Notes under the pieces: model-generated
Database searches by the model: none
What the model was told of the DNA's origin: nothing
What the model saw: only the letters and a program-made list of their open reading frames with translations
Translations under genes and position numbers: made by a program
Shown: in pieces, positions 18,116 to 36,699 of the stretch
How the letters are laid out: every line of letters starts with the position of its first letter
How positions within the stretch are numbered: position 1 is the first letter of the stretch
NCBI GenBank assembly: GCA_043797265.1
Contig: JAZDPV010000007.1
Span: forward strand, 1 to 38,651
DNA from: an archaeon
GTDB taxonomy: Archaea; Nanobdellota; Nanobdellia; Pacearchaeales; GW2011-AR1
DNA: 38,651 nt
Direction of reading: 5' to 3'

Positions 18116-18350
18116 GTGTTAGGTGTTAGAAGGATTGGCTCACGGATTTCACGGATGGACACGGATTTTTTATTTGTTTTAATAAAAAGAAATTTCGACG
18201 ACGAAAAAATTAGAGAAAAAATCACCCTTTATTGTTTCTTTTTTCCGAATGAAATGAGGAAAACATGACGCAACTTGTTTGCGACTTTTTTTCTAAAAAA
18301 GAAAATGAGGGATTCTTATTTTGCTTCTTTTTCTAAAAGAAGATTTAGAA

Positions 18351-18932
18351 TTAATTTGCTTTTTCAAAAGTAATATCTTTGTAGGATGCTTGTAATCCTA
18401 TTCCTCTTGAACATTCAGAATTAATCGGCATATCATAACCAACAATCTTAGCATTTTTTACTTTAACAATAATAGGAACATTATCTTCAACTCCAAGAGC
18501 ATCTAATTTTTCTTTTAAAGCTTGAGCAGATACTGAAGAATCTTGAGTTTCTTCATCTTCTGTAATTGAAATTCCTGTCCAGAAGTTGTTACTCCCTATA
18601 TCCATATATTCTTTAGAATCCTTTGGAATATTTTCATCTAGATAAATTATTTGTATATTGGAGTGAGCCATTCCAGTACCTTTAAGCCCTCTTAATTCAT
18701 TCATAAAAATCATATTATAACCAATAACATCAACAGTTTCTCCCTCGCAAGGCATTGGAATATTACAAGTTTTTTCAGTTTGTAATCCACAAAAAGAATA
18801 TAAATCAGTAGTAGTAATGAAATCTCCAGTAGTTGGTTCTGGTTTTTCTGGATTCAAATAAATGTAAGCTCCAACAATAACTACAATTAAAACTATACCG
18901 ATAATTGTTGTTATTAAAATATTTTTCTTCAT
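18351..18932 (-). CDS. Membrane-anchored hypothetical protein, atypical composition
   Basis: N-terminal TM; AT-rich and lacks the strand skew of its neighbours. Confidence 0.75.
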   Translation of the reverse strand: MKKNILITTIIGIVLIVVIVGAYIYLNPEKPEPTTGDFITTTDLYSFCGLQTEKTCNIPMPCEGETVDVIGYNMIFMNELRGLKGTGMAHSNIQIIYLDENIPKDSKEYMDIGSNNFWTGISITEDEETQDSSVSAQALKEKLDALGVEDNVPIIVKVKNAKIVGYDMPINSECSRGIGLQASYKDITFEKAN

Positions 18933-19194
18933 AATTTAAGTAAAGAAAACATATTTATAAAGATTTGCGAAGCTTCAAGAGGAATTGAAGTGAAATTAAT
19001 CCTCGGCGAAGCCGATAAAATGTCCGAAGGACTAATAACCCCTCAAACTAAATGAAAAATTTGGGTGTAGCGAAGTGAAACCTTTTACCCTTTCTTATAC
19101 AAAGTGCGAAGCATTTTGTTGGTTTTCTTTCAGTTTGATGTAACTTGTTTTTTGTTTTGATTGGATAGTTTTGCGGATTGCAATTGTATTAATA

Positions 19195-19320
19195 ATTAAA
19201 TCTTCTTTCGTATTCTTTGCGGTCGAGCCATTCGAGGATGATTGTGATGATTGTGAGGTTGCCGCCTTCGATTGAGTAGATGAGTCGCCATGCGTCGGTA
19301 ACCGAAGAATATTTAAAGGA
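19195..19320 (-). pseudogene. Remnant of a RelE-like toxin gene
   Basis: Minus-strand frame ...FKYSSVTDAWRLIYSIEGGNLTIITIILEWLDRKEYERRFNY* with an upstream in-frame stop and no start codon. Confidence 0.6.
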
Positions 19321-23019: not shown

Positions 23020-26000
23020 ATGGGTAATAAAAAAGTTGTGGCGGGATTTGAATTAGTTGTGATGGTTGCATCTGTGTTTGCTTTCAGCTATTTGGTTGCG
23101 GTGAGCAATGAGGTGTTTGGCGGGGCTGATGTTAATTTGAGAGTTGGCGGATTTGGAAGAGTTGTTGCTAAGGTTGTTGAGATTTTGGGGAAACCGATAA
23201 TTGGGATTGCATCGGCGGAAAGTTGGAACGAGACTCTTGATAGCGGGGATATTTTGATGCACACGACGATGAAAAGCGCGTTTGAGATTTCATCTGATGT
23301 GTTCGGGGCGGGTTGCTGTGCGGTGAGCAAGGATGGATATAAATGTGCGACGACGCTGGATGCGGGTTGCAAAGATGGTGAATCTTTTGCTGAAGGTTCT
23401 GTTTGCGATTCGACTTCGTTTTGCAAGAGAGGTTGTTGTTATGATGAGGAGCTGGGAATTTATGATGCGAATGTTTTGGAACGAGATTGTTCGGCAAGCT
23501 GGGTTGACGACGCTAATTGCAATATGCCGGGAGCCCGGAAGGGATGCTGTGTTCTTGGGGCGGCTTCGATTTATGAAACGCGGGGGCAATGTAGTGTTGA
23601 TAGTTTGACTTTGGCGATGGGGCCTAATGCCGTCGTTGATTGGAGAGTTGATTTGAATTCGGGGCAGTGCGCGATGTTGTCTGCTGTTCAGGAGGAGGGC
23701 GCTTGTGTTATCGGGAATGATTGCAAGTTTGTGAATGAGGGGAATTGTTTTAGTTATGGCGGGGAATTTTATGGTGATGTTTTATGCACTTCTCCTTCTT
23801 TGAATATGTCCTGTAAGAAAACTGACAGAACGACTTGCGTCGACGGGAAAGATGGAGTTTATTTTGTTGACTCCTGCGGGAATGTGGCTAATGTTTATGA
23901 TTCAAAACGAATTAATGATGATAGTTATTGGGATGTTGTCGTTGGTGAAGATGATTTGTGCGGGGCCGGGGATGGGAATGCGAAGTCGAAAAGCTGCGGG
24001 AATTGTAATCGGTTTCTCGGTGGGATTTGTGGCTCGGCGAGCGAGGACGGGTTTAAAGTTGATAATGGGAATTTTTATTGCCGGTCGACGTCGTGCATGT
24101 TTGACGGGAAGAGTTACAAGAACGGGGAATCGTGGTGTGTTTACGACGGTGTGATTGGTGATGGGAACGATGTTGTGGGTTCGCGGCACTGGAAATATGT
24201 TTGTTCGCAGGGGGTCGTGCAGATTGAGCCGTGTGCTGATTACCGGAATCAGATTTGCGTCCAGACAAATACTTTTGATGTCGAGGGGAAAGAGGTGGAG
24301 TTTAGGAATTCGGCTTGTATTGCAAATAATTGGAGGATGTGTCTGGATTTGAATGGGGAGGAAAATGGACTTGAAGAATGTGCAGATAGTTTGAATTGTC
24401 GGATTGATAGTGTCGCTATTGCTGATCATTTTAGTTTTAATGTTTGTGTGCCGAAATATCCGGGCGGGTTTAATTTAAAGAGTGAGAGGTATCAGGGGAC
24501 GGCGGGAAAAATTTGCGACATGGCGGATTTGAGTTGTACCGTTGTTTATGCGCCGAAGACGTGGGGAGGTTGCAAGATTGTCGCGAACAAGGGATGTCTT
24601 AGCGAAACATTTGCGAAAGAGATGAATGATTTTTGCCGAGGGCTTGGGGATTGTGGAGGGGCTGCTAACATTGTCGGAGAATATTCGAGTAGTTACAAGG
24701 TTTTTAATTCGCCGATGCTGGGGCAGGGGGCGATTGATAGGTTGAAAGATTTGGCGACGCCGATTGAGGGGCAATTTGCCGAGGTTGAAGATTATAGTGA
24801 GTATTTGGAGGCGGCGGGGTTGTGGGGCGGGACTGGAGATGTGCCAGAGACGGGAGAGTTGGAAGATTATGGCGGGATGATGACTAATATTGGGATGGGT
24901 GTTGCGGGGATTGGATATGCTGTAGGAGTTATTGTCACGGGAAGCTTTCATCTTACTGGGTTATCTTATGCTGTTCTTTTTTCTTCTGCTTCGGAATTAG
25001 CTCCCTTTGCCGGCGCTGCGATTGGTGCTGGAATTGGGATGATTGCGGGCGCGATGATTGCTGACGCGATGGGGCTTAGTCCGGGGGGTTCGTTGCTGAT
25101 GGCGATTGGGGGAGGAATGGTTGGAGGAATTGTGGGATATTCTATAATAAGTCATGGCGCTGTGCTTTTGGGAATACCCGGACTTGGTTTAATTATATTT
25201 GCAGCGGGTATTATTTTAATTGTGACTTCGCTTTTTTTTGGTGGGGATGATTGTGATAATGTTGTGGTTCGGTTTGATTGTAAGACGTGGTTGGCGCCGA
25301 GTGGGGGTGATGATTGTGATGAGTGTAATGGGGATTTGTTGAAGCCGTGTTCGGAATATCGTTGCAATAGTTTGGGGGCGGCGTGTGAGTTGATAAATAA
25401 AGGGAGTGATAATGAGTTGTGCGTCGAGAATAATCCTGATGATGTTCGGCCGCCGATTTTGAAACCCCGATTGGAAGTGATTTCTGAAAATGAAACATAT
25501 AGCGATATCAGCGACGGTGGTTTTGGTTTGACTAATAAGGATGGCGGTTGTATTGATGCGTATACTCCTTTGATGTTTGGGGTTGCGACTGATGAGCCGG
25601 CGCATTGCAAGTTTGATGTTGAGATGAAAGAGTTTGAGGAGATGAGTTTTGATTTGGGCGGGAATTTTTATCTTTATAATCATACGACGGTGTTTGTGTT
25701 GCCGGACCCGAGTCATGGGCAGAGCCAGGGATTTAATTGGACTGGGGATTTGAATTTTTATATTAAGTGCCGGGACACGCATGGGCATGAGAGTCCGGGG
25801 TTTTATAGTGTTGATATGTGCGTCAGAGAAGGTGAAGATGTGACGGCGCCGATTGTGCGAGCGGTTAGCCCGAAGAATGGCGGAATTGTCGGGTTTAATG
25901 TGACTTCGAAAAATGTTACTATTGTTACTAATGAATTGGCGAGTTGCAAGTGGGACTTGAAAGATGTTGTTTATTCGGAGATGGGGAATGAGATGAGTTG

Positions 26001-26700
26001 TTTGGATAGTTTGAATAGTCCGTCGAATATTCAGGGATATGTTTGTTTGGATGTTTTGCCGACGATGAGCGGGGATAATGTTTATTATGTTAGGTGCGAG
26101 GACCAGCCGTGGATGGATAGCGGGAATGCGAATATTGATAGTTTTGTTTATGAATTAAAGAAGCCGAGCAAGGCGATTGAGATTGACTGGATTGAGCCGA
26201 GCGGGGATTTTGAAATTAATAGTGACATGACGACGATTAGGTTGCAGGTTGAGACGTCGGGTGGCGGGGATGTGCATTATTGTTCTTACTCGTTTTCTGG
26301 GCATGAGACGATGATTAGAATGTTTGAAAGCGGGGGGAAACTTCATGAACAATTTTTGAACAGGCCGGCGGGGTTGCACAAGATTTATGTTGAGTGCGAG
26401 GACGAGACGGGGGATTTTGTGAGAGGGGAAACGAGTTTCAAGATTATCAAGGATAGTTCGACGCCGCAGGTTGCGAGAGTTTGGCAAGATGACGGGAAGT
26501 TGCATGTCGTGACGACGGAGATTGCTGATTGCAGATATTCGACTGAAAGTTGCAAGTTTAACTGGGATGATGGCGAGGTGGCTGGGAATGGGATGGAACA
26601 TATTTTCGGAGTGGTTCGTGGGGATACTTATTATATCAAGTGCGAGGATGAATTTGGGAATGTGCCGTCGGGATGTTCGATAGTTGTTCGTGCTTTGTGA
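23020..26700 (+). CDS. Giant Cys-rich surface protein (1226 aa) with a central Gly-rich hydrophobic region and C-terminal Ig-like repeats
   Basis: N-terminal hydrophobic signal, dozens of Cys (GCC, NGESWC.YD), about four Gly-rich hydrophobic helices near aa 620-740, and repeated T.E.A.C...Y(Y/I).C.D..G modules. Confidence 0.85.
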   Translation: MGNKKVVAGFELVVMVASVFAFSYLVAVSNEVFGGADVNLRVGGFGRVVAKVVEILGKPIIGIASAESWNETLDSGDILMHTTMKSAFEISSDVFGAGCCAVSKDGYKCATTLDAGCKDGESFAEGSVCDSTSFCKRGCCYDEELGIYDANVLERDCSASWVDDANCNMPGARKGCCVLGAASIYETRGQCSVDSLTLAMGPNAVVDWRVDLNSGQCAMLSAVQEEGACVIGNDCKFVNEGNCFSYGGEFYGDVLCTSPSLNMSCKKTDRTTCVDGKDGVYFVDSCGNVANVYDSKRINDDSYWDVVVGEDDLCGAGDGNAKSKSCGNCNRFLGGICGSASEDGFKVDNGNFYCRSTSCMFDGKSYKNGESWCVYDGVIGDGNDVVGSRHWKYVCSQGVVQIEPCADYRNQICVQTNTFDVEGKEVEFRNSACIANNWRMCLDLNGEENGLEECADSLNCRIDSVAIADHFSFNVCVPKYPGGFNLKSERYQGTAGKICDMADLSCTVVYAPKTWGGCKIVANKGCLSETFAKEMNDFCRGLGDCGGAANIVGEYSSSYKVFNSPMLGQGAIDRLKDLATPIEGQFAEVEDYSEYLEAAGLWGGTGDVPETGELEDYGGMMTNIGMGVAGIGYAVGVIVTGSFHLTGLSYAVLFSSASELAPFAGAAIGAGIGMIAGAMIADAMGLSPGGSLLMAIGGGMVGGIVGYSIISHGAVLLGIPGLGLIIFAAGIILIVTSLFFGGDDCDNVVVRFDCKTWLAPSGGDDCDECNGDLLKPCSEYRCNSLGAACELINKGSDNELCVENNPDDVRPPILKPRLEVISENETYSDISDGGFGLTNKDGGCIDAYTPLMFGVATDEPAHCKFDVEMKEFEEMSFDLGGNFYLYNHTTVFVLPDPSHGQSQGFNWTGDLNFYIKCRDTHGHESPGFYSVDMCVREGEDVTAPIVRAVSPKNGGIVGFNVTSKNVTIVTNELASCKWDLKDVVYSEMGNEMSCLDSLNSPSNIQGYVCLDVLPTMSGDNVYYVRCEDQPWMDSGNANIDSFVYELKKPSKAIEIDWIEPSGDFEINSDMTTIRLQVETSGGGDVHYCSYSFSGHETMIRMFESGGKLHEQFLNRPAGLHKIYVECEDETGDFVRGETSFKIIKDSSTPQVARVWQDDGKLHVVTTEIADCRYSTESCKFNWDDGEVAGNGMEHIFGVVRGDTYYIKCEDEFGNVPSGCSIVVRAL

Positions 26701-26734
26701 TAGAATTTATAAATAAGAGATGATTGGGATAGGG

Positions 26735-27034
26735 ATGAAGAAAGGGTTGGACAAGAATGGGATAATTGACAGGCTGAAGGAAAGCCGGGATGAGTTGAAA
26801 AAATATGGGACGGTTCGTATTGGGTTGTTTGGTTCGTATTTGAAAGGGGAGCAAAAAGGTAGAAGTGATATTGATTTTTTGGTTGTTCTTGATGAAAATA
26901 CTTTTGATAATTATTTTGGATTGTGGGCTTTTTTAGAGAAAGTTTTCGCGAAAAAAATTGATTTGGTTATCGAGAAAGGATTGAAACCTGAATTAAATTC
27001 CGTGAAAGAAGAGGCAATTTATGTTGAGGTCTAA
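26735..27034 (+). CDS. MNT nucleotidyltransferase antitoxin
   Basis: LFGSYLKGEQKGRSDIDFLV; TATA box at 26706-26713. Confidence 0.92.
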   Translation: MKKGLDKNGIIDRLKESRDELKKYGTVRIGLFGSYLKGEQKGRSDIDFLVVLDENTFDNYFGLWAFLEKVFAKKIDLVIEKGLKPELNSVKEEAIYVEV

Positions 27035-27350
27035 GTTGTATTTTAGTCAGATTCTTAGGATGATTAATCTTATCGAGAAGCATAGAGAAGATGGTTTAGA
27101 TGATGAACAAAATTGGGACGCGACTCTGATGAGGTTGCAAGTTATTGGGGAAAATATTGGGAAGATTCCGATGGGAGTTAGGAAGAGGTATCCCGATATT
27201 GAATGGGATAAGTTTAAGAATTTGAGAAATATTATTAGTCATGTATACATTGGGGTTTTGAAGGAAGTGGTGAAGGATACTATCGAAAATAAACTCCCGA
27301 GGTTGGGAATTGAAATAAAAAATATAATGGAGAAATTAAATGAAAAATAG
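27021..27350 (+). CDS. HEPN (DUF86) toxin
   Basis: Motifs LQVIGE and RNIISHVY. Confidence 0.9.
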   Translation: MLRSKLYFSQILRMINLIEKHREDGLDDEQNWDATLMRLQVIGENIGKIPMGVRKRYPDIEWDKFKNLRNIISHVYIGVLKEVVKDTIENKLPRLGIEIKNIMEKLNEK

Positions 27351-28137
27351 AGGGCAGGTCACATCGCTTCGCGAGAATTCAGGTTTCAGAATTCAGAATT
27401 CAGAACGACGGGGACAAGTTACGATTTTTATTATTGTCGCGATTGTGATTGTGGCGGTGGTCATTGTTTTTCTTTTGTGGGTTCAGCCGACTTATTTTTC
27501 TGAGACGGGAAGGGGGTTAGGCTTTGAAGGATGCGTTGGTGATGCGGTTGAGCAGGCGGTTGACGAGTTAGGGTTGAAGGCCGGGTTCGTTAATCCAGGT
27601 TTTAGTTATACATATGATGGGGAGGAATTTGTTTATTTGTGTTATACGAAGGAATATTATGAGACGTGCACGGTGCAGGTGCCTTTTTTGAAAAATGTTT
27701 TTGAGAAGCAGATGGAGAGTTTGATTAGGAGCAAGATTGATAGTTGCTATGCTAATTCCGTCGGTGATTTGGTGGCGCAGGGTTATGATGTTGTCGGTGG
27801 TGTTGTTGATTATGATGTCTTGATTGAACCGGGAGTCGTGAGAGTTGAGATTGATGCGCCGACGAGTGTTGGCTCGCAGGGGTTTTCCCGATTTAATGTC
27901 AGGGTTAATTCGCCGATTTATGATATGATTATGATTGCGACTTCGATTTTGCAATATGAGTCGTCGCTGGGCGATTCTGATATTGATACTCTTATGATTT
28001 TTTATCCTGATTATATTATTGACAAATTAAAGCAGGGAGATGGGACGACAGTTTATATTGTGGAGAATAAAATTTCGGGAAATAAATTTCAGTTTGCGTC
28101 GAGAAGTTTGGCGTGGCCGGCGGGATATTTGAGATGA
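27340..28137 (+). CDS. Pilin-like protein, class III signal peptide (duplicated RGQVT)
   Basis: MKNRGQVT...ERRG/QVTIFIIVAIVIV; shares YLCY and F.FA.RS with 22240..22986. Confidence 0.8.
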   Translation: MKNRGQVTSLRENSGFRIQNSERRGQVTIFIIVAIVIVAVVIVFLLWVQPTYFSETGRGLGFEGCVGDAVEQAVDELGLKAGFVNPGFSYTYDGEEFVYLCYTKEYYETCTVQVPFLKNVFEKQMESLIRSKIDSCYANSVGDLVAQGYDVVGGVVDYDVLIEPGVVRVEIDAPTSVGSQGFSRFNVRVNSPIYDMIMIATSILQYESSLGDSDIDTLMIFYPDYIIDKLKQGDGTTVYIVENKISGNKFQFASRSLAWPAGYLR

Positions 28138-28138
28138 A

Positions 28139-28435
28139 ATGAAACTAACAAATAAAAAAATAATTCGGGAGATTGAAAGGAGAAGAGATGAGTTAAGGGC
28201 TAAGGGCGTTAGAAAAGTTGGGTTGTTTGGTTCGTATTTGAAGGGGTCTCAAAAAAAGGGTAGTGATATTGATTTGTTGATTACTTTTGAAAAAGAAAAT
28301 TTAGGGAAGAATTATTTTGAAGTTTTATTTTATTTGGAAAATTTGTTTAAAAGGAAGATTGATTTGGTTGCGACCCAATCTTTAAGACCTGAATTAAATT
28401 ATGTAAGGGAGAAGGCTATTTATGTCAAAATATGA
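28139..28435 (+). CDS. MNT nucleotidyltransferase antitoxin
   Basis: LFGSYLKGSQKKGSDIDLL; close paralog of 26735..27034. Confidence 0.92.
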   Translation: MKLTNKKIIREIERRRDELRAKGVRKVGLFGSYLKGSQKKGSDIDLLITFEKENLGKNYFEVLFYLENLFKRKIDLVATQSLRPELNYVREKAIYVKI

Positions 28436-28742
28436 TCTTTATTTAAATTTGATTAGAGATATGATTCAAAGAGTTGAGGGAGATTCGAATAAATCCTTGG
28501 AAGATAAAACTGTTTGGGACGCTATGCTTATGAGGTTTCAAGTTATAGGTGAAAATATTGATAAGTTGCCAATTGAGATTAAGAAAAAACATAGTGAGAT
28601 TAATTGGAAAAAATTTTATGCTTATAGAAATTCGATAAGTCATTCATATAATAAAATATTAGTAGAAGTAATTATGGAATTAATTAATGAGTTGCCTGCA
28701 TTAAAGAAAGCTATTGTTAAAATGAGAGAGGAATTAAAGTGA
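28422..28742 (+). CDS. HEPN (DUF86) toxin
   Basis: Motifs FQVIGE and RNSISHSY. Confidence 0.9.
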   Translation: MSKYDLYLNLIRDMIQRVEGDSNKSLEDKTVWDAMLMRFQVIGENIDKLPIEIKKKHSEINWKKFYAYRNSISHSYNKILVEVIMELINELPALKKAIVKMREELK

Positions 28743-30508
28743 ATAAAAAAATAGTTTTAATGTTTGTTTGTTTGTTTTGTTTGGCTGAGGTTCTTGCGGC
28801 GACTGCGACTTCAGATGCGAGTTTTTGTTGCGAGAAAACTGTCGATGGGGTTTGGTGCATTAATGATGAGGAAGCGAATTGCGATAGTTCTTATAAGGTT
28901 GCGCCGACTTCGTGCGAGACGACTTCGTATTGCAGGTTGGGGACGTGTTATGAGTCGGAGGAGGGGATTTGCATGGAGAATACGCCGCAGAGAGTTTGCA
29001 ATGATTATGGCGGGACTTGGGATGCGAGGGATATTAGCGAGGTTCCGCAGTGCCAGTTGGGGTGTTGCATAATTGCCGATCAGGCGGCGCTTGTTCCGTT
29101 GGTCAGGTGCAAGAGGTTGTCGACGTTGTTTGGAGTGAGTAATGATTATCGGTCTGGAATAACTGACGAGATTTCTTGTATCGCGACGGCGCAGGCGCAG
29201 GATGTCGGGGCTTGTGTTTATGAAAAAGAATTTGACAGAGTTTGTGAGTTTACAACGCGAGGTGATTGTGGTGCGGGAGAGAGAGTTGAGATTGTGAATG
29301 GGAGCAGTGTTGCGTTGTCGAGCGAGAGAACTTTTTACAAGGATTTTCTTTGTTCGGCTGAGGAGTTGAATACGGCTTGCGCGAAACAGACTTCGACGAC
29401 TTGTTACAAAGGTGATGTTTATTGGGTTGATTCTTGCGGGAACAGGGAAAATATTTATTCTGGCGACAAGGTGAAAAGTTGGAATGCGGGAAAAGTTTTG
29501 GATGAGGATAGTGTTTGCAAGGCGAATGATGGTTCGGCTATTGATTGCGGGAATTGTGATTATCTGCTGGGGTCGAGATGTTCGGAGTGGGATGGGTATG
29601 TTGGCGGGCCGAAATTTGGAGATAATTATTGCCGGAGGACTGAGTGTGTTGATAGAGATGGAGACAAGAGAGTGAATGGAGAGTCGTGGTGTGTTTATGA
29701 TAGCATCGTCGGGAATGGCAGGGATATGGTTGGTTCGAGATATTTCAGGGAAGTTTGTGTTGATGGGGAGGTTCATGTCGAGCCGTGTGAAGATTTTAGG
29801 AATGAGGTTTGTCTTGAGGATTCGATAGAGACGAGCGCTGGCGAGTTTGGGACGGCGGCGTGCCGAGTTAATCGATGGCAGAATTGCGTTCTTCAAATTG
29901 AAGAGGATGATTGTTTAAATATCGACAGGAGGGATTGTATTTGGGTTTCATCCGTGACTGGAATGATTATTGGGGGCGGGACGCAGAGCGGGGTGTTTAC
30001 TAACCCGAGTGGCGCGACTGCTTTTAATAATCCGACGGCGAGTGGTGGATTTGGAACGGGGAATGTTGTGGCGCCTATAACTGGGGAAGGAATTTTTGGA
30101 GGAGAAGAGGAAGAGAAGATTGAGGAAAGTGTTAGCAATAGGCCCGGTGGTGTTTGTGTCCCGAATTTTCCGCCGGGATTGAAATTTTGGGATGAGGCGG
30201 CTCAGCAGGACTGTGGGATTGCGAATGCGAAATGCGTTGTTGTTTATGAGAAGGGATTGATTGGGGGGAGGAAGTGTGTCGAGGGGTGTGATTGCTTGGA
30301 TGAGTCGTGGGCGTTGAGTGCGAATCGTGTTTGCACTGCTCTTGGAGATTGTGGTGGTTATGTAAATTATAATAGCAAATATACCGACGATGGTTATGCG
30401 TGGAAAGTTGACGGGGTCAAGAGTAAGTTTGCGCCGAACAGTGTTAATATTATTAGTGGCGGGTTTACAGGGAGAGTTGTTGAGATAGTTGAAGAGATTT
30501 TGGGGTAG
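28739..30508 (+). CDS. Secreted Cys-rich protein, paralog of the N-terminal half of 23020..26700
   Basis: Shared motifs VY.VDSCGN..N.Y, CGNC, NGESWCVYD..G.G.D.VGSR, EPC.D.RN..C and C..LGDCGG..N. GTG start overlaps the HEPN stop. Confidence 0.85.
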   Translation: MNKKIVLMFVCLFCLAEVLAATATSDASFCCEKTVDGVWCINDEEANCDSSYKVAPTSCETTSYCRLGTCYESEEGICMENTPQRVCNDYGGTWDARDISEVPQCQLGCCIIADQAALVPLVRCKRLSTLFGVSNDYRSGITDEISCIATAQAQDVGACVYEKEFDRVCEFTTRGDCGAGERVEIVNGSSVALSSERTFYKDFLCSAEELNTACAKQTSTTCYKGDVYWVDSCGNRENIYSGDKVKSWNAGKVLDEDSVCKANDGSAIDCGNCDYLLGSRCSEWDGYVGGPKFGDNYCRRTECVDRDGDKRVNGESWCVYDSIVGNGRDMVGSRYFREVCVDGEVHVEPCEDFRNEVCLEDSIETSAGEFGTAACRVNRWQNCVLQIEEDDCLNIDRRDCIWVSSVTGMIIGGGTQSGVFTNPSGATAFNNPTASGGFGTGNVVAPITGEGIFGGEEEEKIEESVSNRPGGVCVPNFPPGLKFWDEAAQQDCGIANAKCVVVYEKGLIGGRKCVEGCDCLDESWALSANRVCTALGDCGGYVNYNSKYTDDGYAWKVDGVKSKFAPNSVNIISGGFTGRVVEIVEEILG

Positions 30509-30637
30509 GGATTTGAATTTGGGCTTTCAGTGAGTGGGAAGAATTATTTATCTTGGTGGATAGTTGATTGGTAGTTTGTTTGGGATGAGTGAAGTGAATA
30601 CGAGGCGTTGTCAGCGTCGCTGGCGGGCGGGTTTGGA
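30509..30637 (+). pseudogene. Degenerate fragment of the 33020..35218 gene
   Basis: 29-bp exact match of 30608-30636 to 33554-33582, with degenerate similarity upstream (GTTGATTGGT.GTTTGTTTGG.ATGAGTGA.G). Confidence 0.85.
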
Positions 30638-30715
30638 TAGGGGTTATAATTTCACTACTAATTGTGCGTAATTTTTTGAAGAAATATTTATATAGTTTGA
30701 AGTGATAGAGTGTTT

Positions 30716-30883
30716 ATGGATAAACTTGAAATTGTTGCCTCAAATGAAACCTTAGGAATAGAGATGGATGCCGACGAGAGAAAGTATCTAGCTACTGTTT
30801 CACCAGTAGAAGATTCTTGTTTCTCTTGTAATATAGAACCATGTAGAGCTTGTTATGGGCCCCTTAATTATTCTTTAGATTAG
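30716..30883 (+). CDS. Putative RiPP precursor peptide, 55 aa, Cys-rich core (absent from the ORF track)
   Basis: MDKLEIVASNETLGIEMDADERKYLATVSPVEDSCFSCNIEPCRACYGPLNYSLD*. TTTATATA at 30687-30694 lies 21 nt before the ATG, the same spacing as other leaderless genes here; ends 9 nt before the rSAM gene. Confidence 0.8.
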   Translation: MDKLEIVASNETLGIEMDADERKYLATVSPVEDSCFSCNIEPCRACYGPLNYSLD

Positions 30884-30892
30884 AATTGGCAA

Positions 30893-31933
30893 ATGATAAA
30901 AAAACACCGAAACAAAGATAGAGGGTTTTATATCCAATGGGATTCCACTAATGATTGTAATTTATCTTGTTCTCATTGCTATCATAATTTTGGGAAAATT
31001 AAAGATAAATCTAAACAAAGTAAAACAATGACATTAGAAGAGATTGTATACATGTTAGATGATTTAAATCAGACTTGTGACAGGTGGAATTTTAATCCTA
31101 TTTTTAATATTTCTGGAGGTGAGTGTTTACTTAGGCCAGATTTATTTAAAATAATTAATTATTCTATTTCTAGAGGGATCGAAACCAGATTAATGACAAA
31201 TGGGACATTACTTGATATTGAAAAAGCTAATGAATTAAAAAGATTAGGCGTTCTTAGTGTCCAAATTTCAATTGATGGGGACAAAGAAACTCATAATAGA
31301 GTTCGAGGAAGAAATTGGGCTTATAATAAAGCAATGGAAGGTATTGGAAATTGCTATATTGCTGGACTTCATGTGACTGTTTCAACTACTTTAATGAAAC
31401 AAAATGCGTCTCAAATAAAGTTTGTTGTTACAGAAGCAATAAAAAATAGGGCTAGTGGCGTCGGGTTTCAGACTTTAGTCCCCAACCCATTACTTGGAGC
31501 CAATGACCCCGAATTTTTAAATTGTTTTGAAATAAAAAAAGCCTATGAAGAAATTGACAAATTAAGAGAAATATATAAAGGCAAAATTCAGGTTTACACA
31601 AGTGAAATTTTATGGCATTTATTTAGAAACAAAACAAATACGCAATCAAGTTATCAAGGAGGTTGCAGTGCCGGATTCGGCGGGCTTTCTGTTCTTGCTG
31701 ATGGAACAGTTTATGCGTGTAGAAGACTTCCTATATCAGTAGGCCACATTACCGAAGGGATAATTAATCTTGTTACCAAAAAACCTTTAATGAAAGAATT
31801 AAGAGATAATAGAAAGAAGCAAAGAACCTATTGCTCTGACGCTCCTTATTGTGGCGGATGTAGAGCTATCGCTTATGCCACCACTGGGGATTATTTAAAT
31901 AAAGATCCTACTTGTTTCAAACATTTAATATGA
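30893..31933 (+). CDS. Radical SAM/SPASM domain peptide maturase
   Basis: Motifs CNLSCSHC, SGGE, TNG and QISIDG; SPASM region GGCSAG...DGTVYAC...C-x5-CGGCRA.AY...GD....DP.C. Confidence 0.93.
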   Translation: MIKKHRNKDRGFYIQWDSTNDCNLSCSHCYHNFGKIKDKSKQSKTMTLEEIVYMLDDLNQTCDRWNFNPIFNISGGECLLRPDLFKIINYSISRGIETRLMTNGTLLDIEKANELKRLGVLSVQISIDGDKETHNRVRGRNWAYNKAMEGIGNCYIAGLHVTVSTTLMKQNASQIKFVVTEAIKNRASGVGFQTLVPNPLLGANDPEFLNCFEIKKAYEEIDKLREIYKGKIQVYTSEILWHLFRNKTNTQSSYQGGCSAGFGGLSVLADGTVYACRRLPISVGHITEGIINLVTKKPLMKELRDNRKKQRTYCSDAPYCGGCRAIAYATTGDYLNKDPTCFKHLI

Positions 31934-32460
31934 TAAATACAATAAAAGAGAAAGTAAACATAATGAAAAAAGTGGGCCCAGTTTCAGAGGTATTTGATAT
32001 TGGATGTGGAGATGGTTTTATGTCTAAATATTTTTTAGAATTAGGTTCAAGGGTTACTGGCATAGATTCTATAAACAAACCTCTAATAAAAAATAAAAAC
32101 TTTAAATTTTTAGACAAAGATATTAGAGATTATAAATTTATAAAAAAATTTGATTTGAATATTTGTTCCCTTTTTCTTCATTTTTTTACAAAGGAAGGTG
32201 CAAATTATTTGCTTAAGAAAATAAAAGAAAACACAAAATCTGGTGGCTATAATTTGTTAATTTGTATGACCAATAAGGATAATTTTTCTAAATATAAGCC
32301 TACTAATTTTTACCCTAGTTCTTCAGATCTAATTAAATTATATTCTGATTGGAATTTAATTAGTATTGTCTCGGGCGAAACCGAAAAAGAAAATCATGGT
32401 AATCTCGGAGAACATTATCATAATTTAGTTTTTGCACTATTCCAAAAGAATATTAATTGA
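31930..32460 (+). CDS. Class I SAM-dependent methyltransferase (TehB-like)
   Basis: Motifs DIGCGDG, VTGID, FDL and SGGYNL; ATGA overlap with the rSAM stop. Confidence 0.9.
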   Translation: MINTIKEKVNIMKKVGPVSEVFDIGCGDGFMSKYFLELGSRVTGIDSINKPLIKNKNFKFLDKDIRDYKFIKKFDLNICSLFLHFFTKEGANYLLKKIKENTKSGGYNLLICMTNKDNFSKYKPTNFYPSSSDLIKLYSDWNLISIVSGETEKENHGNLGEHYHNLVFALFQKNIN

Positions 32461-32527
32461 TTAAAATACTCATTATATAATAACGACAAAACAAAAAGTT
32501 TATAAAGTTTGGAGTTGTTTATTTGTT

Positions 32528-32932
32528 ATGAGAAACGCGAGAAAGTTAGGGCTTGTCGGACGGGTTATTCTTGGAGTTGGGGCTGTGGGCGGAATGGTTT
32601 CGACGAGTGGATGTGATGCTGTCGTCGGTGGTTATGTAGGGGCTAAGGTTGCGGAAAAAACTGAAGCGAAAAGAGAGGCGCCTAATACCGAAGAGATAAG
32701 AGGGCCAGAAGTTCCTTACGACGTTAACTTCCTTGCTTATTATAGAATACAGGATTTGAAGACAGGTGAGGTTGAGATTGTTGAATCTAAAAAGTATTAT
32801 GGAGCATTGGCAGATTGGGAGAATAGTATATCTTCACAATATGAAAGAAAATACCCTGAAGGATATAAGATGGAAATAATTAAAGAAGGAAGACTCGCTA
32901 CAACAATTTTTTGGACTCCAAATAAAAATTAA
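32528..32932 (+). CDS. Putative lipoprotein/secreted hypothetical protein
   Basis: Basic N-terminus, hydrophobic stretch and TSGC lipobox-like motif; own TATA box at 32499-32506. Confidence 0.7.
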   Translation: MRNARKLGLVGRVILGVGAVGGMVSTSGCDAVVGGYVGAKVAEKTEAKREAPNTEEIRGPEVPYDVNFLAYYRIQDLKTGEVEIVESKKYYGALADWENSISSQYERKYPEGYKMEIIKEGRLATTIFWTPNKN

Positions 32933-33019
32933 AGTTTATGATTCTCAATCATGATCGCTGATTGTGTTATTATCTTTCTAAAGACAAGAATTTATAAATA
33001 ATAGATGATTGTTTTGTTT

Positions 33020-35218
33020 ATGAAAAAAGGGTATATAGGTTTTAATAAAAAAATTCAGGTTTGTTTTCAATTAACGTTACTCCTCACGTCGCTATTTGCA
33101 TTTTCTTTTTTAGTTGGCTCTATTGGGTTTGTTGAAGCTGAAACTATTTCGAATTTAAATGTTCCTGGAGGTGTTAGTAGCGGGGCTCTCCCCGCTGGTA
33201 CTGAATTAACAGTTACAGAAGCTATAGAAGGGACTAGTTTTACTTCTGCGGGAGGAAGCAATATAATTATTTCTAAAGCTAGTGATTTGAAAATTTTTGA
33301 AACATCTAAAGGCGGGGTCGCGATTTATGATGGTAATTCCTATGAATTAACCGAATCTCAAATGAAATCTTTTTTGGATTCCGGTGCTGCGACGAGACCT
33401 GAGGGTTCTTCTGCTACGTCGAGGCTTTTGGGTTTTAGTAAGGGAACTGGTTTGGATGCTATTGCTTCCGGACTTCAATGGGCGGGGATTGCGTATATGG
33501 CGGGGATGTTGATTGGTGGTTTGTTTGGAATGAGTGAGGGGAATACTAAGGCTTTGTCAGCGTCGCTGGCGGGCGGGTTTGGTTCGTATAAAGCGTTGAG
33601 TGTTTGGAAGACCGGTGGGCATAATATTCCTTATTTGAGTAAGATTCCGGCTTTGTCTGGGATTGTGATTGGTGCGGTTATTTTTCTTGTGATGTATAAA
33701 ACAACTGATGTTGAGGTTGTGACTTTTGATTGCTTGGCGTGGCAGGCGCCGACGGGTGGGAATGATTGCGAGATTTGTAATGATGATACGCTTCCTTGTT
33801 CGGAATATAGGTGCAAGGCGTTGGGGCAGAATTGTGAGATTGTGAATGCGGGAACTAGCGAGGAGAGATGCGTGAATATTAATCCGAGGGATGTCGTGCC
33901 GCCGGTTGTTCGTCCGTGGGTTGAGGCGTTGAGTGCCGGGCATAATTATGTTAATGTTCGGGCTTCGCCGCCCGGGCCTGGGTTTGGGATTGTGAATTTG
34001 AATTCGAGTGATGGATGCTTGAAAGCGTTTACGCCGTTGGAGTTTGGGTTGGTTGCCGACGAGCCGGCGCAATGCAAGATTGATTTTGAACATACTGAAA
34101 GTTTTGATGAAATGAGTGCTTATGTCGGTGGGAGTAATTTGTTTGCTTATAATCATACCGAGAGATTTTCGCTGCCGAGCGCTGAGGCGATTAAGAACTC
34201 GTCGCTGGTTTTAGAGAACGGGAAGGACTTGACTTTTTTTATCAGGTGCCAGGATAAGAACGGGAATGCGAACGAGGCGGAGTATGCGGTGAAGTTGTGT
34301 GTTGACCCGACGCCGGACAACACCGCGCCAAAGATTGAAGCGACTTCTGTTGTTAATGGCGGGTGTGTCGCTGAAAATGTGAATAGCGCCGGGGTTGAGT
34401 TTTACACGAATGAGCCGGCGGATTGCAGATGGAGTTTTGATGACCAAGATTATGATAACATGGTGAATGGGATGAGTTGTTCGGGGGCGTTGTATCAGGC
34501 GAACGCGGCGCAGTTATTTACTTGTGTTGCTAACTTGACTGGAATATCGAGGATTGAGAGTAAATATTATGTGAGATGTAAGGACCAGCCAGGGAAAGAT
34601 GAGGTGAATAGAAATGAGATGAAGCAGAGTTTTGAATTTAGTTTGATTGGTAGCACCGGGTTGAAGATGAAGAACTTGAGACCGAACGAGACGATATTTG
34701 GAGGAGTTAGCCCGACGCCGGTTGAGTTGTATGTCGAAACTTTGTTTGGTTGTAATAATGGGCGGGCGGTTTGCCAGTATTCGTCGAGCGGAGATAATGA
34801 TGATTATATTGTGTTTTATGATACTGATAATATTGATGGGATTAGCACGCAGAAGTTGAGTTTGACTGCCGGGAGACAGGAGTATTTTGTGAAGTGCGTT
34901 GATGAAGGCGGGAACTTAGTTGAGGATAAAGTTGTTTTTGATTTAGAGATTGACACGAGCGCGCCGGTTGTTGCGAGAATTTACGAGGAGGATCAGATGC
35001 TGAAGATTGTGACGGTTCGGAATAGTGAGTGTGCTTATAGTTTGGATAATTGCGATTTTAGTTTTGCCGAGGGGACCGTGATGCCTTACGCGAATTCGAC
35101 GGTGCATGTTGCGGAGTGGAATGAGCAGAAGACTTATTATATTAAGTGCCGGGACGAGTTTAGAAATGAGGACGCTGGATGTTCGGTTGTAGTAAAGCCG
35201 AGTAGAAATTTTTTATGA
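33020..35218 (+). CDS. Cys-rich surface protein, paralog of the C-terminal half of 23020..26700
   Basis: Signal peptide, Gly-rich hydrophobic helices, then V.FDC..W.AP.GG.DC..CN...PCSEYRC..LG..CE..N and Ig-like repeats. TATA box at 32990-32997 supports start 33020. Confidence 0.85.
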   Translation: MKKGYIGFNKKIQVCFQLTLLLTSLFAFSFLVGSIGFVEAETISNLNVPGGVSSGALPAGTELTVTEAIEGTSFTSAGGSNIIISKASDLKIFETSKGGVAIYDGNSYELTESQMKSFLDSGAATRPEGSSATSRLLGFSKGTGLDAIASGLQWAGIAYMAGMLIGGLFGMSEGNTKALSASLAGGFGSYKALSVWKTGGHNIPYLSKIPALSGIVIGAVIFLVMYKTTDVEVVTFDCLAWQAPTGGNDCEICNDDTLPCSEYRCKALGQNCEIVNAGTSEERCVNINPRDVVPPVVRPWVEALSAGHNYVNVRASPPGPGFGIVNLNSSDGCLKAFTPLEFGLVADEPAQCKIDFEHTESFDEMSAYVGGSNLFAYNHTERFSLPSAEAIKNSSLVLENGKDLTFFIRCQDKNGNANEAEYAVKLCVDPTPDNTAPKIEATSVVNGGCVAENVNSAGVEFYTNEPADCRWSFDDQDYDNMVNGMSCSGALYQANAAQLFTCVANLTGISRIESKYYVRCKDQPGKDEVNRNEMKQSFEFSLIGSTGLKMKNLRPNETIFGGVSPTPVELYVETLFGCNNGRAVCQYSSSGDNDDYIVFYDTDNIDGISTQKLSLTAGRQEYFVKCVDEGGNLVEDKVVFDLEIDTSAPVVARIYEEDQMLKIVTVRNSECAYSLDNCDFSFAEGTVMPYANSTVHVAEWNEQKTYYIKCRDEFRNEDAGCSVVVKPSRNFL

Positions 35219-35256
35219 TTAAGTAAGTTTATAAATTTTGATTGGTGTTGTTTTTT

Positions 35257-35760
35257 ATGAGAGTAAATAAAAAGGGGCAGCACATAATGGGGATGCCGTT
35301 TGAAATTATTTTTGCGATTTTTTTGATTGTTGTTTTTGTCGTGATTGCATTTATCGCGGTCGGGTATTTTTTAGATATCGGGCGGAGTTCGAGTGTCGGG
35401 ATGTTTTATCGGGATTTTCAAGCGGTTGTTGATGACGCGATGAGGGGGCAGTTTGAAGAAAGTTCTTTTGAGATTGATTTACCGTCGGAGATTAAGGAAG
35501 TTTGTTTTGCGAATCTTTCGGCTGAAATTACAAATCCGGGGGCAGAGTATGAGGCGATTAAGAATTATGATGTTTATGAGGCGAATGTTTTTTTGGTGCC
35601 GCCGGAGTATGCGCAGAACATGCAATGGAAGTTGATTGATAGGATTAATGTTTCGAAGATTACTCAGAATAAAAATCCTTATTGTGTTGATGCTGATGGG
35701 GAGATTGTGATTAAGAAAGGATTTTATGATAAATATGTTCAAATAGAAGGTAGAGGGTAG
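35257..35760 (+). CDS. Pilin-like protein, class III signal peptide
   Basis: MRVNKKG/QHIMGMPFEIIFAIFLIVV; TATA box at 35228-35235. Confidence 0.78.
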   Translation: MRVNKKGQHIMGMPFEIIFAIFLIVVFVVIAFIAVGYFLDIGRSSSVGMFYRDFQAVVDDAMRGQFEESSFEIDLPSEIKEVCFANLSAEITNPGAEYEAIKNYDVYEANVFLVPPEYAQNMQWKLIDRINVSKITQNKNPYCVDADGEIVIKKGFYDKYVQIEGRG

Positions 35761-36699
35761 ATGGTAGGAGGTAGAAAACATGGGCAGTTTAATTTTGTGT
35801 GGTTGTTCGCGATTGTGGCTGGCGGTGCGATTTTGTTTTTGGCAATTTATGGGGTGTTGAGGTTTGGCGATACGGCAAGATTTCAGAGTGATACCGAGGC
35901 TGCGAAAAGTATTGCAATAATTACCGACCCATTGCAAGCAGGTTTTGCCGAGGGTAAGTTTGGGAGAATTTCGTTTCAGCAAGAGAGTCGGATAAATAAT
36001 ATTTGTTTTGATGATGGGTTTGGGAAGAATGATATTTCTGTGGCGACGCGGTCTGATATTGGCGAGGAGTGGAATTTGCCGGGGGGTGCGAGTTCGATTC
36101 ATAATAAATATATTTTCTCGTCGGGAAAAAGTTCTGGGTTGGATTATTATGTTTTTTCGAAGCCGTTTAATTTCCCGTATGAAGTTTCTGATTTGATTTT
36201 TTTGACGCCTGAGCATTATTGTTTTGTTAATGCACCGGATAATTTGCTTGGGTTGAGCGTTCCGAATATTGAGATGGGTAATTGTAGTTTTGCCGATGGC
36301 GTTAGAGTTTGTTTTGGTTTTGGGGATGATTGTGATGTGATGGTTTATGGTTCGTGTTCGAGCGGGTGTGATTCTGTTTATGACGAGGGCGTTGTGGTCA
36401 AGGGTGGGGTTGATATGAAGTATGTCGGGAGCTTGATGTATGGGGCGATTTTTTCGGACAAGGGAATTTATGATTGTAATGTTCGGCGATTGTTGTATCG
36501 GGCGGGTAAGATTGCTGAGGAGTTTGTTGACAAGGCGGATTTGATGGATGCGAGGAATTGCAATACGAATTTGAAGCCGGATCTTATTATCTGGGGCGCG
36601 ATGGTTGGGAATGCGAGTGTTGGCGATTTGTCGTCGTTGAGAACGATGGCTGATGTGATTGACAGGAAAAATGGCCGGGAAGGATGCGGAATATGGTGA
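35761..36699 (+). CDS. Pilin-like protein, class III signal peptide
   Basis: RKHG/QFNFVWLFAIVAGGAILFL. Confidence 0.75.
   Translation: MVGGRKHGQFNFVWLFAIVAGGAILFLAIYGVLRFGDTARFQSDTEAAKSIAIITDPLQAGFAEGKFGRISFQQESRINNICFDDGFGKNDISVATRSDIGEEWNLPGGASSIHNKYIFSSGKSSGLDYYVFSKPFNFPYEVSDLIFLTPEHYCFVNAPDNLLGLSVPNIEMGNCSFADGVRVCFGFGDDCDVMVYGSCSSGCDSVYDEGVVVKGGVDMKYVGSLMYGAIFSDKGIYDCNVRRLLYRAGKIAEEFVDKADLMDARNCNTNLKPDLIIWGAMVGNASVGDLSSLRTMADVIDRKNGREGCGIW

Follow-up and report, generated by a model that had tools for sequence, protein, structure and literature searches.

A candidate RiPP-type cassette of a short Cys-rich peptide, a radical SAM/SPASM enzyme and a TehB-like methyltransferase in a DPANN archaeon

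The window, meaning the whole stretch of archaeal DNA that was analysed (38,651 nucleotides), carries three closely packed genes between host genes for secreted or surface-type proteins. The features on which the following discussion relies are these:

28739..30508, + strand: left flank, host gene for a Cys-rich secreted 589-aa protein in a surface/pilin-like locus, with a homolog in the genus
30510..32493, + strand: segment missing from the closest relative, genome G216, which aligns to 30308-30506 and then to 32494-32621
30687..30694, + strand: TATA-like octamer TTTATATA, at -29 from the peptide ATG
30716..30883, + strand: putative precursor peptide gene, 55 aa, MDKLEIVASNETLGIEMDADERKYLATVSPVEDSCFSCNIEPCRACYGPLNYSLD, with ATG at 30716 and TAG stop at 30881-30883, recognised by homology and a profile match
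30893..31933, + strand: radical SAM (rSAM)/SPASM enzyme, 346 aa, without an RRE, recognised by PF04055, PF13186 and Cys motifs
31930..32460, + strand: TehB-like class I SAM methyltransferase, 176 aa, its start overlapping the rSAM stop (ATGA), recognised by PF03848 and fold
32528..32932, + strand: right flank, host gene for a 134-aa lipoprotein-like ORF outside the cassette, with promoter and N-terminus in common with G216
33005..35218, + strand: right flank, 737-aa secreted protein, placed by its homologs in genomes G201 and G051

The initial annotation had described a 55-aa reading frame with a CxxC-x4-CxxC core, its own TATA box, and an rSAM/SPASM gene translationally coupled to a methyltransferase gene. 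Direct reading of the sequence bears this out: the frame lies at 30716-30883 with a TATA octamer 29 nt before its ATG, the rSAM gene (ATG at 30893) follows 9 nt past the peptide stop, and the rSAM stop and methyltransferase start share ATGA at 31930-31933. The position of the octamer implies a transcript that would be leaderless or nearly so. Among 24 other loci examined, a TTTAWAWA-like octamer starting at -28 to -30 was found by pattern match in 16, and most of the remaining loci have CTTAAAAA- or CTTATAAA-like strings at the same spot, as judged by eye; the type D loci (n=3) have GGAGG in place of the octamer. A scan for sigma-70 sites and terminators found 9 sites against 8.6 expected. The description of the window cassette as lacking an RRE, protease or exporter is likewise right. 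An HExxH accessory protein or a kinase is encoded by other cassette subtypes; a search of the window genome (83% complete) for the former found none.

All four Cys of the peptide fall within the core, SCFSCNIEPCRACYGP, as C35-x2-C38-x4-C43-x2-C46, and the leader is acidic as proposed (9 acidic and 3 basic among residues 1-33), with a D-E-R-K-Y-L motif that includes the invariant Glu21. The chance that a given 55-codon stretch stays open at the local composition is ~0.007; judging from the sequence comparisons, however, we take homology and not the open frame to be the decisive evidence for a peptide gene. A profile of the related peptides matches the window peptide at 7.3e-14 and nothing else in the genome. 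The two peptides nearest to it, P0122 and P0123, come from a set of 5.8 billion proteins and have the same core as the window, VEDSCFSCN[IM]EPCRACYGP, whereas leaders and tails differ. A leader Glu and a CxxC pair are common to all 22 aligned peptides, across which Glu21, Cys43 and Cys46 are invariant, and pN/pS values of 0.13-0.27 in five of five close pairs of relatives' peptide ORFs indicate purifying selection. The cores comprise at least five unlike types with the leader motif kept throughout, and the window peptide appears to form a core subtype of its own, distinct from types A, B, C and D. An NCBIfam search with 18 peptides at E up to 10 matched no Cys-peptide family; two of the 18 gave only chance-level matches to unrelated families (FliT, 0.12; ribonucleotide reductase, 0.39). 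A C-terminal Asp or Glu was considered as a general feature of the precursors and rejected, since type A peptides, P0122 and P0123 end differently. The precursor ORFs are unannotated or named 'hypothetical'.

The loci of these relatives were found with an alignment (A1) as query; a single-protein query gave none. Each of the 26 DPANN loci whose enzyme is full-length has an upstream Cys-rich ORF, which the initial annotation had suggested looking for near homologs; none of the 4 loci with a truncated enzyme has one. A TehB-like gene adjoins the enzyme gene at 29 of the 30 DPANN loci, compared with 0 of 50 loci outside DPANN. When one set of 201 genomes from the order was searched with the peptide profile, it matched all 10 with a full-length orthologue and none of the other 191, each of the 10 matches lying directly upstream of its enzyme gene; because genomes of this collection also went into the profile, the match beside the enzyme is partly circular and only its absence elsewhere is independent. 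Enzyme subclades coincide with peptide core types (SH-aLRT: A 95, B 93, C 99, D 99, window type 97) in a quick IQ-TREE phylogeny restricted to sequences gathered here. The nearest enzyme relatives (P0002-P0005) are 59-70% identical, and a metagenome scan for the window subtype gave one locus only, at 48% identity; the contigs of the P0122 peptide and the P0003 enzyme are of equal length (21520 nt) and are probably one and the same. A short precursor with conserved leader and variable core beside a modifying enzyme is the generic criterion for a RiPP, and by sequence the family conforms to it; the RiPP reading of the cassette is supported. The literature search found no description of such a family. 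Two papers give generic antiSMASH RiPP-cluster counts for DPANN (PMC12144867, PMC12153355) and a third deals with a different family, CrpC (PMC13692751); supplementary tables of these papers may list such clusters under 'ranthipeptide'. We regard the cassette family as a set of undescribed peptide-modification systems scattered among DPANN archaea.

The cassette occupies what is an empty site in close relatives. A homolog of the 589-aa left-flank protein, which has no Pfam family, occurs in 39 of 41 genomes of the genus, and in G201 and G051 the 737-aa homolog directly follows the 589-aa homolog; the flanking genes are also close neighbours in G216. Since the flanks adjoin in these relatives, ~2 kb was inserted in the window genome, and the empty sites in three same-genus genomes, together with the patchy distribution, agree with the horizontal acquisition put forward earlier. 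The claim that the block is AT-rich and lacks the host G/T skew also holds: the cassette (30687-32460) has GC 0.308, GC skew 0.172 and G+T 0.506, compared with 0.475 / 0.448, 0.493 / 0.387 and 0.647 / 0.620 in the flanking genes. By composition the foreign part of the segment begins near 30687. No direct or inverted repeats bracketing the insertion were found. Cassettes of at least three core types lie in or beside the same pilin-like/Cys-rich surface-protein locus of different genomes: type B at locus L023, type C at loci L035 and L038, and the type peculiar to the window.

A composition so little ameliorated toward the host would fit a recently landed, non-functional passenger, as would the truncated enzymes in 4 loci and the leaders that are interrupted or without an ATG start in 5 of the 26 related loci, which suggest that some relatives' copies may be decaying. 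We nevertheless consider this very unlikely for the window genome, where the three ORFs are intact, the promoter stands at the family's usual spacing, and the core is the same as in two other peptides despite their differing leaders and tails.

The rSAM enzyme matches PF04055 (3.4e-22) and the SPASM family PF13186 (4.9e-07), both above the gathering cut-offs. The radical SAM domain begins at residue 19 and no other Pfam domain was seen; an N-terminus this short leaves no space for an RRE. The enzyme carries the CxxxCxxC cluster (C22-x3-C26-x2-C29) and the C-terminal Cys-rich auxiliary-cluster domain expected of SPASM enzymes, with six invariant C-terminal Cys at 258, 276, 314, 320, 323 and 341; C22, C26, C29 and these six are kept in 81 of 81 aligned enzymes. 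The canonical SPASM Cys pattern is C-x2-C-x5-C-x3-C, from which the C-terminal spacing of the window enzyme, C-x5-C-x2-C, departs. In an NCBIfam scan no family model reached its cut-off, the best scores being those of NirJ2 (169.1 bits, cut-off 500) and ACGX, TIGR04340 (165.5 bits, cut-off 400). The best PDB folds are SkfB, PqqE, SuiB, CteB and anSME (TM 0.66-0.73), all of them enzymes that modify peptides or proteins.

Those scores raise the question of whether the enzyme belongs to tetrapyrrole or other small-molecule metabolism of the AhbD/NirJ type, with the small ORF incidental. Clustering with cofactor-biosynthesis rSAMs had been named beforehand as a finding that would count against the RiPP reading, and it was borne out weakly, in that NirJ2, a putative heme d1 enzyme, gives the top HMM score (AhbD, a heme b enzyme, scores 146.6 bits) and the quick tree places as sister clade a set of stand-alone bacterial enzymes that have no peptide nearby. 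Several homologs are named 'AdoMet-dependent heme synthase' at JGI, a label that points the same way. However, the NirJ2 and AhbD cut-offs are 500 bits, and neither HemB nor HemC was found in the window genome (83% complete), while the same searches match in 11 of 14 control genomes, which makes a cofactor role unlikely. The conservation of the peptide, the purifying selection on it, its strict co-occurrence with the enzyme and the predicted binding described below also stand against an incidental ORF, and we give this explanation hardly any credence.

Models of the peptide-enzyme complex support binding of the two. They gave ipSAE values of 0.88, 0.89 and 0.89, against 0.01 for the best of 3 controls, and passed a mark that 116 of 157 solved complexes but only 2 of 215 mismatched pairs reach; the runs used custom alignments and included ligands, unlike the calibration, and such a pass denotes likeness to peptide-binding rSAMs, not binding itself. 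Contact agreement between runs was at least 71% and partner pLDDT at least 53. The lowest-error contacts join peptide residues 20-25 to enzyme residues 291, 294-296, 301 and 304, and the modelled core touches residues 258, 276 and 323. The leader motif is thus predicted to sit on the SPASM domain. Clade-specific differences of the enzyme occur at 237-239, 241, 291 and 294; R304 and L303, which belong to the predicted leader site, are not among them, being kept in all 81 enzymes.

The methyltransferase resembles TehB in Pfam domain (PF03848, 1.3e-14) and fold only. Its AF2 model (pLDDT 95.4) has TehB structures as best PDB folds (4dq0, 2xvm, 2i6g, 3m70; TM 0.75-0.78, 19-22% identity), and the NCBIfam TehB models score 45.9-64.5 bits, below the cut-offs of 218-303 that an equivalog would reach. 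Relatives of TehB act on soft nucleophiles.

Taken together, these observations make it probable that the cassette serves peptide modification, with the 55-aa peptide as substrate of the rSAM enzyme. We propose a self-contained, horizontally inserted RiPP-type unit whose 55-aa peptide would be translated off a leaderless transcript. Leader residues Glu21, Tyr24 and Leu25 would dock on a SPASM-domain helix (~291-308) of the RRE-less enzyme, and the four-Cys core would thread into the barrel near the auxiliary-cluster cysteines. The enzyme may then form crosslinks by radical chemistry, thioethers from Cys-S to carbon (-2 Da each) being the likeliest, before the coupled TehB-like methyltransferase adds one or more methyls (+14 Da each), possibly on sulfur or carboxylate. 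Within this proposal the gene order, the conservation, the co-occurrence and the insertion are established, and binding has the support of the complex model. We infer thioether crosslinking with methylation to be the likeliest chemistry, and the bond type, the methylation site, the export and cleavage of the product and its role are likewise inferred. Thioether formation by this enzyme in particular is a plausible assignment that falls slightly short of an even chance.

The same system acting on the same substrate could carry out another Cys chemistry, such as formation of a thio-oxazole-type heterocycle (SbtM-like), formylglycine oxidation (anSME-like), a C-C crosslink or the readying of sulfur for S-methylation. 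The window enzyme gets 114.7 bits from the SbtM model, which ranks first for two related enzymes coupled to Cys-rich tails, L054 and L079, and anSME is among the best folds (TM 0.73). The unusual C-x5-C-x2-C spacing, with only six C-terminal Cys invariant, and a methyltransferase nearest to TehB, whose relatives act on soft nucleophiles, point the same way. The supporting scores are nevertheless far under the cut-off (350 for SbtM), and the anSME target motif, C-x-P/A-x-R, is missing from the core. Most characterised SPASM enzymes that act on multi-Cys peptides make thioethers, which likewise argues against a different chemistry. CrpC is described as such a case (PMC13692751). We therefore regard these other chemistries as somewhat unlikely.

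A further possibility concerns the product. Rather than a secreted, antibiotic-like peptide, it might be one that stays inside the cell and either becomes a cofactor or binds metals or metalloids, as known from mycofactocin, PQQ and metallothionein. Genes for export, proteolysis or immunity are missing from the cassette, the families related to its enzyme include PqqE (PDB 6c8v) and the mycofactocin maturase (TIGR03962, 96.7 bits), the CxxC-rich cores resemble metal ligands, and the methyltransferase has a tellurite/selenite methylase as its closest counterpart. Diversifying RiPPs, however, have variable cores and a kept leader, while cofactor precursors are near-invariant; the at least five unlike core types with a common leader motif, and the patchy spread (~10 of 201 genomes of the order), make an intracellular role of this kind improbable.

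The genomes of DPANN archaea are minimal, and these cells are presumed to be host-dependent. That a unit devoted to peptide modification is nonetheless retained and passed around among them gives the cassette its interest, and knowing its product would offer a first handle on the chemistry that they direct at hosts, competitors or metals. To enzymology the family brings a compact RRE-less rSAM/SPASM enzyme of 346 aa with a predicted SPASM leader site and a fixed TehB-like partner. The window contributes a core subtype that is new to the family and an insertion site that is cleanly empty in relatives. With precursors unannotated or 'hypothetical' and the enzyme named a 'heme synthase', standard genome-mining filters are likely to mislabel the family. 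In its boldest form, our proposal would be that these are crosslinked, sulfur-methylated mini-peptides of a new kind, read through a leader by a SPASM domain without an RRE and acting at the DPANN surface or host interface; this whole is speculative and, as it stands, quite improbable.

Among known systems, the reference families (ACGX, AhbD, PapB and similar) were compared with the window enzyme through NCBIfam scores alone. The ACGX system (TIGR04340, a 'hypothetical equivalog') is similar in having an RRE-less enzyme of ~340 aa next to small Cys-rich peptides, which in the ACGX system carry ACGX repeats. The alignment of the window enzyme covers nearly the whole model (3-340 of 341), most clade members have TIGR04340 as their first or second family by score, and type C relatives contain one ACGP or ACGS. 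However, the window enzyme (165.5 bits) and 16 relatives (153-222) all stay under the cut-off of 400, the window core lacks ACGX repeats, and the TehB-like methyltransferase (29 of 30 DPANN loci) sets the family apart. No ACGX member above the cut-off was found in 14 control genomes, and no paper combining 'ACGX' and 'radical SAM' was found in the literature search.

Ranthipeptide systems (SCIFF/CteB, PapB freyrasin, CrpC) share the arrangement of a SPASM rSAM beside a peptide or protein with leader and C-terminal Cys repeats, CteB (5wgg/5why) matches the window enzyme in sequence and fold, and ranthipeptide-like C-x3-D/N spacings occur in the cores. In ranthipeptide/SCIFF-type maturases an N-terminal PqqD-like RRE binds the leader, whereas the window enzyme has none. 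We know of no coupled methyltransferase in the SCIFF/CteB, PapB or CrpC systems. The PapB model (NF047865) gives 91.6 bits against a cut-off of 340, and the CrpC family (TIGR04463) is outside the best 25 listed for the window enzyme. CrpC of Methanococcus voltae is of a different family and has a predicted RRE (PMC13692751).

SkfB is the best PDB match of the window enzyme (sequence 3.6e-15; fold 6efn, TM 0.69), but the two are only 20% identical, TIGR04403 gives 82.3 bits against a cut-off of 300, and SkfB has an extra N-terminal domain, the alignment beginning at its residue 115. As a sactipeptide-type maturase, SkfB forms a Cys thioether. The heme d1 and heme b enzymes NirJ2 and AhbD, which give the top HMM scores, are like the window enzyme in length and domain order; apart from the low scores and the HemB/HemC result, they differ from the window family in that its enzymes are paired with a peptide (26 of 26 full-length) and a methyltransferase (29 of 30). 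Finally, the tellurite/selenite methyltransferase TehB is the best Pfam (PF03848) and fold (TM 0.77) for the methyltransferase gene, which differs from it in its low identity (19-22%) and in being fixed in a peptide-modification cassette.

The initial annotation had read a short peptide gene with its own TATA box, a closely following radical SAM/SPASM gene and a translationally coupled methyltransferase from the sequence, and the coordinates and Pfam matches agree with that description.

Elements of the cassette in the window
30687-30694, + strand: TATA-like octamer TTTATATA, 29 nt 5' of the peptide ATG
30716-30883, + strand: 55-codon peptide ORF, read from the sequence (ATG at 30716, stop at 30881-30883)
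30893-31933, + strand: radical SAM/SPASM gene, starting 9 nt past the peptide stop (PF04055, 3.4e-22; PF13186, 4.9e-07)
31930-32460, + strand: TehB-like class I methyltransferase gene, with an ATGA overlap with the radical SAM stop at 31930-31933 (PF03848, 1.3e-14)

The N-terminal two-thirds of the peptide is acidic (9 acidic versus 3 basic residues within 1-33), and all four cysteines fall within C35-x2-C38-x4-C43-x2-C46, as claimed. The enzyme was also correctly described as lacking an RRE, since the radical SAM domain already starts at residue 19, and block 30687-32460 as AT-rich without the host skew (GC 0.308, GC skew 0.172, G+T 0.506, versus 0.475 and 0.448, 0.493 and 0.387, and 0.647 and 0.620 in the two flanking genes). 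Searches of the window genome for both components found a single enzyme and a single precursor, and its three-gene cassette is the minimal form of the family.

A search of a large protein set with the window enzyme gives 877 homologs at E up to 0.001; approximately 100 are 42-70% identical, and the named ones among these belong to Pacearchaeota, Nanoarchaeota or unclassified archaea. Among 80 loci taken from species-representative genomes, 30 are from DPANN archaea (L020-L047, L058 and L066), with a full-length enzyme in 26 and a truncated one in four. The conserved upstream peptide predicted by the initial annotation was recovered: a Cys-rich ORF on the same strand, ending 8-88 nt 5' of the enzyme match, is present in all 26 full-length DPANN loci and missing from the four truncated ones. 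The 22 aligned peptides have in common a leader motif, [S/T]-x-x-E-x-x-[Y/F/L/V]-[L/F], in which the Glu is invariant, and one invariant CxxC pair. The window core is a distinct type beside the following four.

Core types of the relatives' peptides
Type A: Y-T-C-V-S-G-C-x-x-C-V-S-C
Type B: C-x-x-C-x-x-C-N-S-C-G-S-G-D-C
Type C: C-D-P-C-D-A-C-G-P
Type D: C-N-T-C-x-x-C-P-G-C-G-C

Two peptides in a set of 5.8 billion proteins match the window core, VEDSCFSCN[IM]EPCRACYGP, exactly, with differing leaders and tails. Peptide ORFs compared between close relatives (five pairs) have pN/pS of 0.13-0.27, and a pattern search finds a TATA-like octamer starting 28-30 nt 5' of the start codon, both in the window and in 16 of 24 other loci; most loci outside the pattern have a similar string by eye, and the three of type D carry GGAGG in its place. 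None of the 21 peptides retrieved with the profile has a Pfam domain, and those with names are all 'hypothetical protein'. It should be noted that the leader is interrupted or without an ATG start in 5 of the 26 DPANN loci, through an in-frame TAG between leader and core (L034, 1277-1509), a frameshift (L038, 1791-2022; L045; L023, 5763-5965) or an unclear start (L035). L038 and L045, from two different MAGs, share one arrangement, a -1 frameshift in an A-rich stretch. The split between leader and core affects some cassettes of types C and B and could stem from decay, recoding or an assembly error.

The cassette is conserved in gene order, and its members co-occur. A TehB-like gene adjoins the enzyme in 29 of 30 DPANN loci, as against 0 of 50 non-DPANN loci. 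Within one evenly spread draw of 201 genomes of the order, ten have a full-length orthologue (E <= 1e-99), and the peptide profile matches exactly these ten, in each case immediately 5' of the enzyme gene, with no match in the remaining 191; the profile was built from the same collection, so that presence is partly circular and absence elsewhere is not. A quick maximum-likelihood analysis of 81 enzymes groups the DPANN sequences with support 99, and the subclades within this group follow the core types of the peptides: support is 95 for A, 93 for B, 99 for C, 99 for D and 97 for the window together with proteins P0002-P0005. Because kin share labels, this agreement shows co-inheritance and not more. 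Type C cassettes encode an extra protein of approximately 220-270 aa (HExxH in 9/9 full-length copies), which was searched for in the window genome and not found; those of type A encode an APH-like kinase, some of them also a DUF3419 protein, and those of type D a second methyltransferase.

The cassette is an insertion into a host locus. On its left lies a 589-aa gene with a homolog in 39 of 41 genomes from the genus; in two of these (G201 and G051) the next gene along is the homolog of the 737-aa gene on the right flank. In the closest relative (G216, 83% identity), the sole gene between the flank homologs is lipoprotein-like, the counterpart of 32528-32932; the alignment of G216 covers window 30308-30506 and then 32494-32621, and therefore about 2 kb (30510-32493) is extra in the window. 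By composition the foreign part starts near 30687, and a search for terminal repeats around the insertion found none. Flank homologs that adjoin without the cassette in G201 and G051 and lie near each other in G216, together with the foreign composition, support the proposed horizontal acquisition. Apart from the window, orthologue-level similarity within the sampled genus genomes is seen in G015 only, at 49% identity and with a type A peptide; since the subtypes differ, separate acquisition of the two cassettes is probable.

The surrounding surface-protein locus seems to tolerate insertions.

Other features of the window, and cassettes near surface genes
18351-18932, - strand: 193-aa membrane-anchored ORF
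28139-28742: MNT/HEPN-type toxin-antitoxin pair (nucleotidyltransferase/HepT-like; PF01909, 2.6e-14; PF01934, 1.9e-12)
Window, 23300-35800: cassette near surface genes, own core type
L023, 2212-10199: the same, type B
L035, 15-3472, and L038, 7210-8755: the same, type C

The MNT/HEPN-type pair lies between a 265-aa pilin-like gene and the 589-aa gene, whose counterparts are adjacent without it in G216; it occupies the same place in G201 and others within the locus in G051 and G209. The 193-aa ORF lies in a second low-GC (0.31), low-skew (0.09) patch at 18001-19200. In 4 of 31 mapped loci, cassettes of three core types occur within a few kb of genes homologous to one shared set of Cys-rich secreted proteins and a pilin-like protein, and the three matches to the Cys-rich family in the window genome are all at this locus on the window contig. 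This proximity might mark a hot spot for insertion or reflect a link in function. In eight genomes of the genus (G138, G206, G069, G215, G207, G213, G219 and G221), the frame containing the 589-aa gene homolog is open for 1275-1444 aa, approximately the sum of the 589-aa and 737-aa genes, and hence the two may be fused there; in G138, the single genome inspected, the matching parts are adjacent.

Modelling supports docking of the leader on the SPASM domain. With own alignments for both partners, three 4Fe-4S clusters and SAM, the peptide-enzyme complex scored 0.88, 0.89 and 0.89, versus 0.01 for the best of three controls; the calibration mark is met by 116/157 solved complexes and 2/215 mismatched pairs, counts that hold only roughly here because own alignments were used and ligands were present. 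Runs share at least 71% of contacts, with partner pLDDT of at least 53. Predicted error is lowest for contacts between peptide residues 20-25 (D-E-R-K-Y-L) and positions 291, 294-296, 301 and 304 of the enzyme, in a predicted helix pair of the SPASM domain, and core residues 27-46 would run along the barrel, contacting Cys258, Cys276 and Cys323. At several of the contact positions the DPANN clade and its peptide-less bacterial sister clade have different residues: I/V versus Trp (37/37 sister enzymes) at 294, S-E-V versus G-D-P at 237-239, and Trp versus Ala at 241. R304 and L303 were rejected as clade-specific contacts, being conserved everywhere. The sister clade (37 loci within L052-L099, Nitrospirota/Desulfobaccales) has no conserved neighbours, no Cys-rich ORF upstream of its 37 enzymes and no enzyme passing an NCBIfam cut-off (AhbD 169-195 bits versus 500).

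Since most characterised SPASM enzymes acting on multi-Cys substrates make thioethers, a thioether is the favoured bond in the product. One example is CrpC (PMC13692751). The methyl acceptor is likewise inferred, as are how the product is processed and exported and what it does.

A separate clade of related rSAM/SPASM enzymes (support 99), with no methyltransferase present, looks like a second undescribed substrate-enzyme pairing. It comprises L053, L054, L062, L071, L072 and L084 (Nitrospirota, several magnetotactic), L079 (Cyanobacteriota) and L059 (Undinarchaeota); its enzymes lie directly 3' of genes whose products have Cys/Gly/Ser-rich tails (e.g., ...GGCGGCGGGGGD), the upstream product in L059 being a 51-aa membrane-anchored CxxC-repeat peptide.

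On the DPANN peptide/rSAM/methyltransferase family, the literature searched gave generic counts of DPANN RiPP clusters (PMC12144867, PMC12153355) and one different, RRE-bearing family (PMC13692751) only. Neither the window enzyme nor 16 related enzymes passed any NCBIfam model, the former scoring 169.1 bits for NirJ2 (cut-off 500), 165.5 for ACGX (400), 146.6 for AhbD (500), 114.7 for SbtM (350), 91.6 for PapB (340), 82.3 for SkfB (300) and 74.4 for PqqE (381). A heme-type role is unlikely, because HemB and HemC were not found in the window genome (83% complete) while both searches were positive in 11 of 14 control genomes. The methyltransferase does not reach the NCBIfam TehB cut-offs; its model (pLDDT 95.4) lies nearest to TehB structures (TM 0.75-0.78, identity 19-22%), with the disulfide-methylating Ecm18 at rank 16. 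For the enzyme, the PDB sequence search ranks SkfB first (3.6e-15), then CteB, PqqE and GDGT-MAS, and the fold search (pLDDT 83.9) gives SkfB, PqqE, BlsE, SuiB, CteB and anSME as best matches (TM 0.61-0.73). Six C-terminal cysteines (258, 276, 314, 320, 323 and 341) are invariant in 81/81 enzymes, and their spacing, C-x12-G-x4-C ... C-x5-C-x2-C ... C, departs from the seven-Cys SPASM motif.
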